Origin: Escherichia phage Bp7
Reading direction: 5' to 3' (one strand)
Length of the DNA stretch: 64,000 nucleotides
Sequence record: NC_019500.1
This document shows, in pieces, positions 4,105 to 19,518 of this stretch; within the stretch, counting starts at the first letter, position 1, and every line of letters begins with the position of its first letter. The notes under the pieces were generated by a model. The model had not been told where the DNA came from, did not search any database, and saw only the letters and a program-made list of their open reading frames with translations. Position numbers and translations under genes: made by a program.

Positions 4105-5064
4105 ATGATGTTAGTTATTGGTTCTCGTGCACTGCACCACGCTGGTCTGATTGAAAGTAAGCATATCGAAAATTCTGATTGGGATTTCATTGCCGACCAA
4201 GGCTCATGGAATCACTTTAAAGCTCGGATGTTTGGTGCCCATGTTCCTGTGGATAACCCTGATGTCCAGGCTTTTAAATGCATGTACAACGGTAAAGAAA
4301 CCTATTTTGAAGCATATATCGTTCGTGCTCTGACTAACGTACGAGAAATCACCGGTGAGCTCCAAGATGAAGATTTCACCTCAAGTTATCGTCTCCTGAA
4401 ATATGCTGAAAATCATATTAAAAAGGATCGTCTTACAGGTTTCTATTGGGCTACGCCTGATATCTGTCTTGCTATCAAAACCTCTCATCGTTTCCTGAAG
4501 AATAATCCTTTCTTCCTGAAAACTATGTCCCACATCAAATACCTTCGTAATAAAGGTATCACCCTGAACGAAGAACTCCAGGAAATTATGCTGCAACGTC
4601 AAAAAGAAACGTTGAGCTACAAGCACCCTAAATTGGATGTAAACAAATCATCGTTCTTTAATGATACCATTTATACCCTAGACCACGACTCTATCCATGA
4701 AGCAGTGGCATTGGCAGGGCGCCCTGCATATACCTTTTATATGAAGGAAGGTTCTGAAGTCATGACCTCTCGTGAGAAGTTCGAGGCTTTGCCTGAAGCT
4801 ATTAAACTGGCTGGTGTGTATGAAGAAACTTGTGTCCTGGCACTAGAACGTTCACAGGTTCCTAATGACTTCAATATTTCACCATCATTAAGTTTCTATA
4901 TGGCCCTTGAGAAAGTGTGCACCTCAATCACTTCAGGTTGGTTCCGCACTTATGCATGGGAAAACTACCAAGCTGTGGTTAATATGTACAAGACTTTAGG
5001 TGAAAACGACTACATTGAACGGTTTAAGCGTAACCAACATTTAATTCGTCCTTTCGAAAAATAA
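4105..5064 (+). CDS. hypothetical protein (319 aa)
   Basis: ATG at 4105 preceded by TGAGGAAAATATT RBS module; track ORF 4042 start rejected. Confidence 0.6.
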   Translation: MMLVIGSRALHHAGLIESKHIENSDWDFIADQGSWNHFKARMFGAHVPVDNPDVQAFKCMYNGKETYFEAYIVRALTNVREITGELQDEDFTSSYRLLKYAENHIKKDRLTGFYWATPDICLAIKTSHRFLKNNPFFLKTMSHIKYLRNKGITLNEELQEIMLQRQKETLSYKHPKLDVNKSSFFNDTIYTLDHDSIHEAVALAGRPAYTFYMKEGSEVMTSREKFEALPEAIKLAGVYEETCVLALERSQVPNDFNISPSLSFYMALEKVCTSITSGWFRTYAWENYQAVVNMYKTLGENDYIERFKRNQHLIRPFEK

Positions 5065-16582: not shown

Positions 16583-16602
16583 AAGGCCTTCGGGCCTTTT
16601 TT
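16583..16602 (+). terminator. rho-independent terminator
   Basis: AGGCC-TTCG-GGCCT followed by TTTTTT. Confidence 0.7.
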
Positions 16603-16622
16603 GGGTTTAGTGCAAAAAAGAG

Positions 16623-16650
16623 TTTACACTCTCGTAGAGCATGTTATTAT
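16623..16650 (+). promoter_or_regulatory. early promoter
   Basis: GTTTAC, 16 nt, TATTAT, then GGACCTATCAA box variant. Confidence 0.45.
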
Positions 16651-16687
16651 GGACCTATCAAATCTACTGAGTGAAATGGAGAATATA

Positions 16688-17668
16688 ATGTTAACTATCA
16701 AAATCAACAAAGGTATCTATCGCGGTAATGTAATCTCTGGTACGTTCATGAGTTCAGGTAAAACCTGGTTCCCTAATAAAATTCATGAATCCGAAGCTCA
16801 CCTAGGTGATGGCAAGGTATTCGTACAGATTGATGGTGTTGAACGTGGTGTATGGGTGTTCAAATGTGATATCGAAACCGAAGGTGCTGGAGCTCCTGCA
16901 ATGGTTACTGAATCCGCTGAAGAAATGAAACATCGCATTAACAAACGTTTTAAAGTAATGAACATGATGACTAATGGAATCATCGATGGTAAAATTCGTT
17001 CCCTTATCATCTCTGGTGCCGCAGGTATTGGTAAAACGTATTCTTTGGATAAAGCATTACAGAATGCCCACGAAAATGAAACTATCGAATATAAATCAAT
17101 CAACGGAAAGATTAGTGGAATCGGTCTTTACGAGCAGCTTTGGAATAACCGCGGCCCTAATAGTGTTCTTCTTATCGATGATGTTGATGTATTCTCTGAT
17201 ATGGATATCCTGAACCTTCTGAAAGCGGCATTGGATACCGGTGAAAAACGTAAGGTGTGCTGGAGCACTTCAAGTTCTTACCTCGATGATAAAAATATCG
17301 ATAAAGAATTCGAATACGAAGGCACCATCGTGTTCATCACCAACGTTGATATTGACCGTGAATTAGAGCGTGGAACTAAACTTGCTCCACACCTCCAGGC
17401 TTTAGTATCTCGTTCAGTTTACTTAGACCTCGGAGTTCACTCGAACGAAGAGATTATGGTTCGTGTTGAAGACGTTATCCTGTCCACTGATATGATGCAA
17501 AACCGTGGTCTGACTGACGCCGAGACTTACCAAGCTTTAGCATGGATGAAGGCTAATGTATCTCGTCTTCGTAACGTATCATTACGTACAGCTCTTTATC
17601 TGGCGGATTTCATTGCCACCGATAAAAATGACTGGGGTGAAATCTCTGAAGTTACACTTCTGAAATAA
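16688..17668 (+). CDS. AAA/P-loop ATPase (326 aa)
   Basis: Walker A GAAGIGKT, Walker B LLIDDVD; start ATG 16688 after GGAG. Confidence 0.6.
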   Translation: MLTIKINKGIYRGNVISGTFMSSGKTWFPNKIHESEAHLGDGKVFVQIDGVERGVWVFKCDIETEGAGAPAMVTESAEEMKHRINKRFKVMNMMTNGIIDGKIRSLIISGAAGIGKTYSLDKALQNAHENETIEYKSINGKISGIGLYEQLWNNRGPNSVLLIDDVDVFSDMDILNLLKAALDTGEKRKVCWSTSSSYLDDKNIDKEFEYEGTIVFITNVDIDRELERGTKLAPHLQALVSRSVYLDLGVHSNEEIMVRVEDVILSTDMMQNRGLTDAETYQALAWMKANVSRLRNVSLRTALYLADFIATDKNDWGEISEVTLLK

Positions 17669-17680
17669 GGATAAATTATG

Positions 17681-17733
17681 TTCGAACAATTGGTCCCGAA
17701 GTCGCATGCTCCCGGCCGCCATGGCCGCGGGAT
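17681..17733 (+). other. cloning-vector polylinker-like sequence (pGEM-T-type, T7-side arm)
   Basis: GTCGCATGCTCCCGGCCGCCATGGCCGCGGGATT (17700-17733) matches the recalled pGEM-T MCS up to the T-overhang site; upstream ~20 nt is a diverged ApaI/AatII region. Confidence 0.75.
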
Positions 17734-17745
17734 TATCGTGATGCC

Positions 17746-18030
17746 ATGAAACAGTCCGTCGAGGACTATGATAAAGAAGTTGTCGACGGATATACTAATA
17801 GAGTTTATAAAACTGAATGCGAAGAAGGAGACTACAGGAGATTGCTCTTGGCCGCGAAGACCCAGGCCTTAATAAATCTAGACCGCAAGCAGGTAAAGTT
17901 GGCAGGCGACTTCAGAGATAAGCAGCGCGCCATTCGTAGTGATTATCAAGAGCGTATCGCTCAACAAAGGAAAACTGTGACCCAATCAGCGTGGTTTAGT
18001 GGACAAGCAGGTGAAAAAAGTTTCTATTAG
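17746..18030 (+). CDS. hypothetical protein (94 aa) inside the vector-flanked segment
   Basis: ORF with noticeably higher GC than flanking phage DNA, no clear RBS; function unknown. Confidence 0.35.
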   Translation: MKQSVEDYDKEVVDGYTNRVYKTECEEGDYRRLLLAAKTQALINLDRKQVKLAGDFRDKQRAIRSDYQERIAQQRKTVTQSAWFSGQAGEKSFY

Positions 18031-18032
18031 TT

Positions 18033-18061
18033 GTTTACATCTCCAGTAGAAATGATACTAC
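18033..18061 (+). promoter_or_regulatory. early promoter (PeSL-type variant)
   Basis: GTTTAC, 17 nt, TACTAC; CTCCAGTAG/CTACTGGAG inverted repeat with compensatory changes. Confidence 0.45.
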
Positions 18062-18087
18062 AGACATATCAACTACTGGAGGTTATC

Positions 18088-18582
18088 ATGAACGCTAAAG
18101 ATATTTTTTCACTGATTAATTTCAACAACGGTAATTTCAAATCTGAAAAACAAAGCAAGTTCTTTAACGACGTTGCTTGTGGTAATGAGATTACTGTATC
18201 TGGAGGAGAGATTTACAAAAGCCGTTGGAACTGGATTGTTATCATCGATTCAGTTGGTATTGTAGAGCTCTATAAAAACACCAACAAAAAACGTACTCTT
18301 CACTGGAGTCGTGAAACCAATCAAGCTTATCAAGCTGAACGTAACAAACGTTTAATGCCTACCGAATCCGACCTGGCAAACGTTAAATCTGATATCGCTT
18401 ATTTCGATAATCTGATTGCTGAACAACAAGCTGTTATTGATAAGTTTGACGAAATCAAAGCTTGTAAAGAGATTCCTGAATTCATGCGGGAATCAGTAAA
18501 CGAACAGTACGCCCTCACTTCAGGTCGATCAATAGTGCGAACCCCTGCAAGTCGAACATCTGGGAGAGCTCCGATCGCGTAG
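18088..18582 (+). CDS. hypothetical protein (164 aa); 3-prime end runs into vector-like sequence
   Basis: ATG 18088 after GGAGG; last ~18 codons are encoded by polylinker-like sequence, so the native C-terminus is probably lost. Confidence 0.45.
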   Translation: MNAKDIFSLINFNNGNFKSEKQSKFFNDVACGNEITVSGGEIYKSRWNWIVIIDSVGIVELYKNTNKKRTLHWSRETNQAYQAERNKRLMPTESDLANVKSDIAYFDNLIAEQQAVIDKFDEIKACKEIPEFMRESVNEQYALTSGRSIVRTPASRTSGRAPIA

Positions 18583-18592
18583 TATGAAGAGC
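18528..18592 (+). other. cloning-vector polylinker-like sequence (pGEM-T-type, SP6-side arm, diverged)
   Basis: ATCAATAGTGCGAACCCCTGCAAGTCGAACATCTGGGAGAGCTCC... aligns to the recalled MCS at ~80 percent identity; SpeI/NotI/PstI/SalI/NdeI each lost by point changes. Confidence 0.65.
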
Positions 18593-18678
18593 GTTTAAAG
18601 ACGGTTCTCGCATAAACGCTTTATACCAAGGATGGTATAATGGTTCTAGGTTCTTAATTACTTACTGAGGAAATTATT

Positions 18679-19518
18679 ATGTCACAGGCAATTAATCAAA
18701 TTCGTTCTGAAGTTAAAAAAGTTGTTAAATTCGGACGTATTCCGAGTTCTAAAGAAGTGGTTGAAAAGGTTTTGGCCATGATGTGGGAAAAGTTTGAAGT
18801 TTGTATTTCTGTAGATGAATTCACTAAAATCTTTGACAAGACTAGGATGTTTACGTTAGAAGACCGAGTCATGAAATCTCTTCACAGGGCCGGTATGTTG
18901 ACTCGTGCTAACGCCAGAATTATTCTTAGAAATTATAACAAAGGCTATGACCTCTATGGTCGTTTAATCCCGGCGATGTCATTTGATGAAGTTGTTAAAG
19001 ACCTTCGTACTAACCAACGACGTTTACTAGCACTGGGTGCTCGTCTAGCTTTAGGTAAAGATAAGCAAATGCCATTTAAGACTAATGGTTCAGGCGATTG
19101 GATTATCTTTAATATTGTCAACCAACCAGGTAACGAAAACGAGTATCTTACTTCAACTTTTAGTGGTTGTCAATATGACAACTGGAAATTCCATCTTCGA
19201 TTGGCTTTGTCTGAACTCGAACGTAGCGGTATTCTTACCTTCGATAATGTTAATACCAGTACAGGCTGGCGTATTAAACTTGTTAAGCCAGGTAATGAAG
19301 TTAAGAGTCATTCAGAAGCTCCTAAACCGGAACCTGTACCAGTGCGCAGCAATGAGAAGCATCAAGCTCAAATCGAGTATTTTAGCAATTTGCTTACTTG
19401 CTTGAATGTTACAATTCAGCAACAAGATGATGAGATTTTCCGACTCTCTGGTCTGAATGCTAAAGCCAAGGCTGAACGCCAGAAATATATCGATATCCTA
19501 AATCTTCTTAAGGATTAA
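18679..19518 (+). CDS. hypothetical protein with C-terminal coiled coil (279 aa)
   Basis: ORF with TGAGGAAATTATT RBS module; C-terminal heptad-like region. Confidence 0.6.
   Translation: MSQAINQIRSEVKKVVKFGRIPSSKEVVEKVLAMMWEKFEVCISVDEFTKIFDKTRMFTLEDRVMKSLHRAGMLTRANARIILRNYNKGYDLYGRLIPAMSFDEVVKDLRTNQRRLLALGARLALGKDKQMPFKTNGSGDWIIFNIVNQPGNENEYLTSTFSGCQYDNWKFHLRLALSELERSGILTFDNVNTSTGWRIKLVKPGNEVKSHSEAPKPEPVPVRSNEKHQAQIEYFSNLLTCLNVTIQQQDDEIFRLSGLNAKAKAERQKYIDILNLLKD

Follow-up and report, generated by a model that had tools for sequence, protein, structure and literature searches.

Untrimmed pGEM-T polylinker very probably accounts for two foreign arms in the published genome of Escherichia phage Bp7

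We report that the published genome of Escherichia phage Bp7 (NC_019500.1) holds two short arms of cloning-vector polylinker, one on either side of a 793-bp segment of native phage DNA. The arms take the place of native sequence, break two genes and, where they depart from the vector, follow the phage. In all likelihood they are a sequencing or assembly artefact, in which untrimmed pGEM-T sequence was carried into the published genome, and no feature of the phage. Positions below refer to the window, by which we mean the whole 64,000-nt stretch of the record that was analysed.

Two polylinker arms meet at the cloning site of pGEM-T

The vector reference was the T7-MCS-SP6 region of pGEM-5Zf(+)/pGEM-T; in a PLSDB search all of its 192 nt matched the 3,004-bp TEM-1 plasmid NZ_CP124361.1 at 100%. 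With this entire plasmid as the blastn query and the window as the target, both arms match the cloning vector at statistical significance, and together with the DNA that they enclose they give the following features:

17688..17733, + strand: T7-side polylinker arm (5′ arm); vector 1885-1930 of pGEM-5Zf/pGEM-T; blastn 46 nt, 2 mismatches, 95.7%, E 3e-15, and three-way comparison
17734, + strand: additional T after vector GGGAT, ahead of the insert; the vector matches stop at 1930 and restart at 1931
17735..18527, + strand: native phage DNA, 793 bp, spanning codon 20 (DUF7203 gene) through codon 147 (nrdC.8), most likely the cloned PCR amplicon; blastn and identity to phage IME540
18528..18592, + strand: SP6-side polylinker arm, mixed with native bases (3′ arm); vector 1931-1995; blastn 65 nt, 80.0%, 13 mismatches, 0 gaps, E 2e-11

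The two vector matches adjoin in pGEM, where the boundary 1930/1931 is the EcoRV cut GAT/ATC. The insert has the T7 arm on its left and the SP6 arm on its right, and both matches face inward and end at the cloning site. The T at 17734 is the 3′-T overhang by which a T-vector is recognized; its EcoRV-cut parent has no such base between its two halves. An initial annotation of this DNA, made from the letters alone, had called attention to 34 nt identical to the T7-side cloning site of pGEM-T-type vectors; the match is indeed exact but lies at 17701-17734 (GTCGCATGCTCCCGGCCGCCATGGCCGCGGGATT) rather than 17700-17733, and the vector match also takes in the 13 nt before it, from 17688 on, where two bases differ. 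Its second match, of about 80% to the SP6-side polylinker at 18528-18592, is borne out in position and extent, and the vector search that it proposed for this region returns pGEM for both arms.

The 5′ arm opens with 4 nt (AATT) common to the vector and the native sequence. Its SphI, EagI, NcoI and SacII sites are intact, four 6-bp restriction sites within 25 nt, while its mismatches at 17694 and 17700 abolish ApaI and AatII, one each. In the 3′ arm SacI (18566) is the sole surviving site, in line with the initial annotation, although NotI is gone through three changes and not, as was thought, through one. The GC-richest 40-mer of the window also sits in the 5′ arm, with a GC fraction of 0.775 against a mean of 0.39 (sd 0.078), some 5 sd above it.

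Normal phage sequence might in principle bear a chance or natural likeness to a polylinker, and the moderate identity of the 3′ arm, at 80%, is the one observation that leans this way. The probability of such a coincidence is negligible, and the reading is already refuted by the E values of both matches, by their collinearity and abutment at the cloning site, by four intact sites in 25 nt and so GC-rich a 40-mer in a 39% GC genome, and by the absence of the arms from every relative.

Vector sequence in the window is confined to these arms. Whole-plasmid blastn gave no further significant match in the 64 kb, the remaining ones being 13-14-mers with E>0.5, and the window has no plasmid backbone, no marker and no second copy of the 793 bp. 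A GC-outlier scan of the window for other vector remnants brought up nothing further, and a search with the polylinkers of pUC19, pMD18-T, pBluescript and pCR2.1 found no remnant of them in the window.

The DNA between the arms is native and in its natural place

The arms fall in the nrdC.10 / small orf / nrdC.8 / nrdC.6 block, and the phage is a JS98-like member of the T4 type (genus Dhakavirus). At least 50 records cover at least 80% of positions 17000-19300, the best being IME540 at 97.4%, and more than 50 Dhakavirus genomes align across the locus with the gene order nrdC.10 / orf / nrdC.8 / nrdC.6 and without the arms. When 17681-18598 is searched by sensitive blastn, only query positions 55-847 (17735-18527 of the window) align, with 99.6% identity to IME540 and 90-94% to dozens of other Dhakaviruses, so that the alignment to relatives ends at the inner edges of the arms. 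Four-way alignment and three-way display of IME540, IME08 and JS98 show ordinary sequence where the window has polylinker. The arms substitute for native DNA: 47 nt (including the T at 17734) stand in place of 36, and 65 nt in place of 62.

Compared with IME540, the left flank is identical at 684/688 positions, the interior at 790/793 and the right flank at 708/708. Since the interior and both flanks are equally near-identical to IME540, the segment is neither foreign nor from a different phage, and the comparison indicates that it is native, in its natural place and part of the same genome as its flanks, with only the two arms foreign. This overturns the view of the initial annotation that some 0.8 kb had been inserted: the 793 bp are native and syntenic. 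The same near-identity led us to reject a cloned fragment from a different phage, as from contaminating template. A natural insertion (mobile element, homing endonuclease gene or moron) does not fit either, the interior being syntenic in all Dhakavirus relatives at 90-99.6%.

Wild relatives carrying the same arms would have spoken for a natural sequence, and none was found among the more than 50 Dhakaviruses. Each arm alone, searched against 50,697 phage records, matched KF241843.1 as the sole record, and the vector-insert junction was not found in IMG/VR. A search for an independent Bp7 assembly found none; the NrdC.11 protein of Bp7 forms a singleton cluster from one contig.

The closest relative shifts along the window. 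IME540 is 99-100% identical around the nrdC block (17000-19300, outside the arms), while over 20000-44000 it is outside the best 12 matches, which PSD9, FB and E33 head with about 96%. This switch is ordinary mosaicism for T4-type phages.

The arms break two genes

Three reading frames carry the marks of the arms:

17678..17749, + strand: 23-codon stub MFEQLVPKSHAPGRHGRGIIVMP followed by a stop, very probably artefactual; it starts at the true ATG of the 113-aa gene and continues into the vector arm
17746..18030, + strand: 94-aa remnant of the DUF7203 / phrog_1931 gene, deposited as EpBp7_0041
18088..18582, + strand: nrdC.8, with native residues 1-147, a 17-aa arm-coded tail SIVRTPASRTSGRAPIA and a premature TAG

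The native form of the first gene encodes 113 aa and matches DUF7203 (full profile, 1-109) as well as phrog_1931. The 5′ arm makes a net change of +11 nt, which shifts the reading frame and thereby leaves the stub and the 94-aa remnant (AEN93758.1, YP_007004082.1, UniProt G3MUS3), the latter matching only positions 16-99 of a 99-position profile. The higher GC of the 94-aa ORF, pointed out in the initial annotation, is real (0.446 against 0.39 for the window), but the native homologues in relatives are also high, at 0.40-0.43.

The second gene, nrdC.8, natively encodes 174 aa, the length of 13 among the 15 proteins listed from its 50-member cluster. Here the 3′ arm makes a net change of +3 nt, so the native frame picks up again past the false stop (YEERLKTVLA and stop), and the Bp7 protein matches only positions 1-153 of the 175 of phrog_2274. 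Both faulty proteins lack exactly those profile ends that relatives keep.

The deposited NrdC.8 (AEN93759.1, YP_007004083.1, G3MUS4) is given as 183 aa, from a TTG start at 18031. The ATG at 18088, which is the start used by relatives, has a GGAGG ribosome-binding site and lies 19 codons downstream of that TTG. The extension from the TTG overlaps a conserved promoter-like motif, GTTTACA...GATACTA, so the TTG is probably a start-codon miscall.

The initial annotation had advised distrust of all of 17681-18598 and its two flanking genes. That caution holds for codons 1-19 of the DUF7203 gene and the final 27 codons of nrdC.8 and can be lifted from the rest: nrdC.10, nrdC.6 and the interiors of both damaged genes are sound, the interior and flanks being near-identical to IME540.

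Bases that depart from the vector follow the native sequence

In a MAFFT alignment, 15 arm bases depart from the vector, and 14 of them agree with the aligned IME540 base: 2/2 of the departures in the 5′ arm and 12/13 of those in the 3′ arm. The 3′ arm keeps the vector base at 52 of its 65 nt, 12 of the other 13 are the native base, and all of its departures are substitutions, with no indels. It switches column by column between a vector and a native sequence that are only about 38% alike, and the outer junctions grade into native sequence.

Gapped alignment can inflate such a count, and we therefore rely on registers fixed beforehand by the flanks. In the flank-fixed register, 6/6 departures over 18564-18592, on the right of the 3′ arm, are the native base (empirical P 4e-4, among 15,766 native 29-mers), as are 2/2 in the 5′ arm. 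In the middle of the 3′ arm (18528-18563), 5-6 of 7 departures are native in several registers, the register being ambiguous because vector and native sequence are both A-rich. As a control, native segments were shuffled and aligned freely with gaps, and 188 of 5000 reached an equally good score (p about 0.04). We discarded a naive binomial estimate of the mosaic (12/13, p=1/3, P=1.7e-5) as too optimistic, MAFFT gaps being free and both sequences A-rich.

To judge from these base-by-base comparisons, the mosaic probably reflects a consensus called column by column over genuine reads and clone reads that carried vector, and not pure base-calling error. The contrary case, an artefact without read mixing, would put the 80% identity of the 3′ arm down to base-calling errors alone in a single T7-primed Sanger read. 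Such a read would reach the SP6 polylinker at read position about 850-920, and the geometry fits, with an almost perfect near arm (2 errors in its first 13 nt) and a poor far arm more than 840 nt downstream; the shuffle result for the middle part of that far arm, being marginal, also leaves it some room. Late in Sanger reads, however, errors include many indels and Ns, whereas the 65 nt of the 3′ arm are gapless and 13/13 of its differences are substitutions, and the agreement with the native base in the right-flank register and in the 5′ arm sits poorly with base-calling error alone. We regard this account as unlikely.

A cloned PCR product is the probable source of the arms

The artefact that we favor probably came about in a few steps. 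A 793-bp Bp7 PCR product (17735-18527) would have been inserted into pGEM-T by TA cloning, its phage + strand reading from the T7 to the SP6 side. The clone would have been Sanger-sequenced from the vector and its reads passed to the assembly with the vector still on them. Anchored by their 793 bp of real overlap, the clone reads would clash with genuine genomic reads past the amplicon ends; close to the insert the consensus would then follow the vector, and farther from it would blend vector with native bases column by column. As an outcome, polylinker arms would supplant 36 and 62 nt of native sequence, leaving one gene frameshifted and the other with a false tail. We infer that the clone was a PCR amplicon, made for example for gap closure or verification, and that the mosaic arose by consensus calling over conflicting reads. 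One detail adds a step: the right junction reads GGTCG/ATCA against the expected GGTCGAATCA, and since the A of the A-overhang is missing, an artefact needs one more editing or consensus event. If the arms are an artefact, true Bp7 is 14 bp shorter than the record and reads CAATTTATTTACAATCTTTATAACGCAGGTTTGGCCCATCGTG and GGTCGTATCGAGCAGTACAAATCACAACGAGCTGAACGCCAAGCTCTGCTTCAGAAATTTGAAGAGC, or close variants, at the two places.

The phage stock itself might instead contain the arms, Bp7 or a laboratory derivative having recombined with a pGEM-T clone of the 793-bp fragment through marker rescue, insertion/substitution engineering or illegitimate recombination on a plasmid-bearing host. They do flank a phage-homologous segment, as they would in a donor plasmid, and the damaged genes are small, accessory and of unassigned function, such that their loss may be tolerated. 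After a single crossover, however, the entire 3-kb plasmid would lie between two 793-bp copies, its arms facing the backbone, and neither backbone nor duplication is seen, while a double crossover within the homology would transfer zero vector. Each arm lies outside the homology, directly abuts the native flank and displaces a similar native length. A base-by-base mixture of sequences so little alike is not a recombination product, and in place of the discrete foreign/native junctions expected of a recombinant phage we find a 3′ arm that alternates and edges that fade. Physical presence would imply patchy, non-canonical gene conversion from a pGEM-T clone between barely similar sequences, and both the reading and the event that it calls for are highly improbable. 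Among the three origins that the initial annotation had entertained, we thus retain a chimeric assembly with untrimmed vector and set aside an engineered insertion and a marker-rescue product.

Promoter-like motifs and gene names near the arms

The initial annotation had also placed a phage-type promoter between the arms, followed by an ORF whose C-terminus reads into the polylinker. The ORF is nrdC.8 and its tail does so; the promoter, at about 18033-18062, is not called by a simple sigma-70 scan. The GTTTACA...GATACTA motif upstream of nrdC.8 is conserved in relatives and is therefore native, whatever its function. Inside it, position 18054 is C in the window and T in IME540, IME08 and JS98 (GATACTAC versus GATACTAT). 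This C may be genuine variation or an error of cloning or PCR, the latter being conceivable because 18054 falls within the presumed cloned amplicon. Between nrdC.8 and nrdC.6, at 18617-18645, an extended -10-like element (TGGTATAAT) is perfectly conserved in three aligned relatives; the same sigma-70 scan does not call it.

The nrdC.x neighbors (16601-19518) carry varied labels in Dhakaviruses: "thioredoxin", "spanin", "outer membrane lipoprotein Rz1" and "ribonucleotide reductase alpha subunit". Pfam returns DUF7203 for one gene only among these neighbors, and nothing for NrdC.8. The varied product names look like propagation from gene labels and not like evidence.

Consequences and comparable cases

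The importance of these arms lies in data quality and record curation, not in biology. Two proteins are wrong in GenBank, RefSeq and UniProt, the 94-aa N-terminally truncated DUF7203 protein and the 183-aa NrdC.8 with its polylinker tail; the gene lengths to restore are 113 aa for the DUF7203 gene and 174 aa for nrdC.8. Those who use the genome for pangenome, gene-family or restriction-site analyses, or for training sequence models, should mask or correct 17688-17734 and 18528-18592. The Bp7 record (168,066 bp) is a RefSeq reference genome and the exemplar of Dhakavirus bp7 in the ICTV taxonomy.

The plasmid that served as our vector query, NZ_CP124361.1 (pAVS0093-B), is reported from a wastewater E. 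coli isolate, carries TEM-1 and equals the T7-MCS-SP6-lacZ region of pGEM-5Zf(+) over the 192 nt compared; it looks like a laboratory cloning vector in the assembly of an environmental isolate.

T4 insertion/substitution (I/S) engineering and marker rescue resemble the Bp7 case in that they use a plasmid clone of a phage fragment, with arms flanking homology. Their products hold a whole plasmid with duplicated homology or zero vector, and Bp7 has neither pattern. Another phage GenBank record with pGEM-T-family polylinker is KF241843.1, a 5,035-bp clone record of Escherichia phage phi-8, which is a further deposit with untrimmed vector. There, unlike in Bp7, pGEM-T Easy stands at both record ends (1-64, 64 nt, and 5006-5035, 30 nt), is 100% identical and has not been merged into a genome consensus. 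Bp7 shares with the usual vector contamination of the VecScreen/UniVec class a polylinker match that ends at the cloning site, is absent from relatives and breaks reading frames. It differs in that the vector sequence is internal to a 168-kb "complete genome" and not at a record end, and in that the arms replace native bases, one of them as an 80% per-base mosaic of vector and native sequence; contamination that is internal, substitutive and blended in this manner is expected to weaken a standard or terminal-match vector screen.
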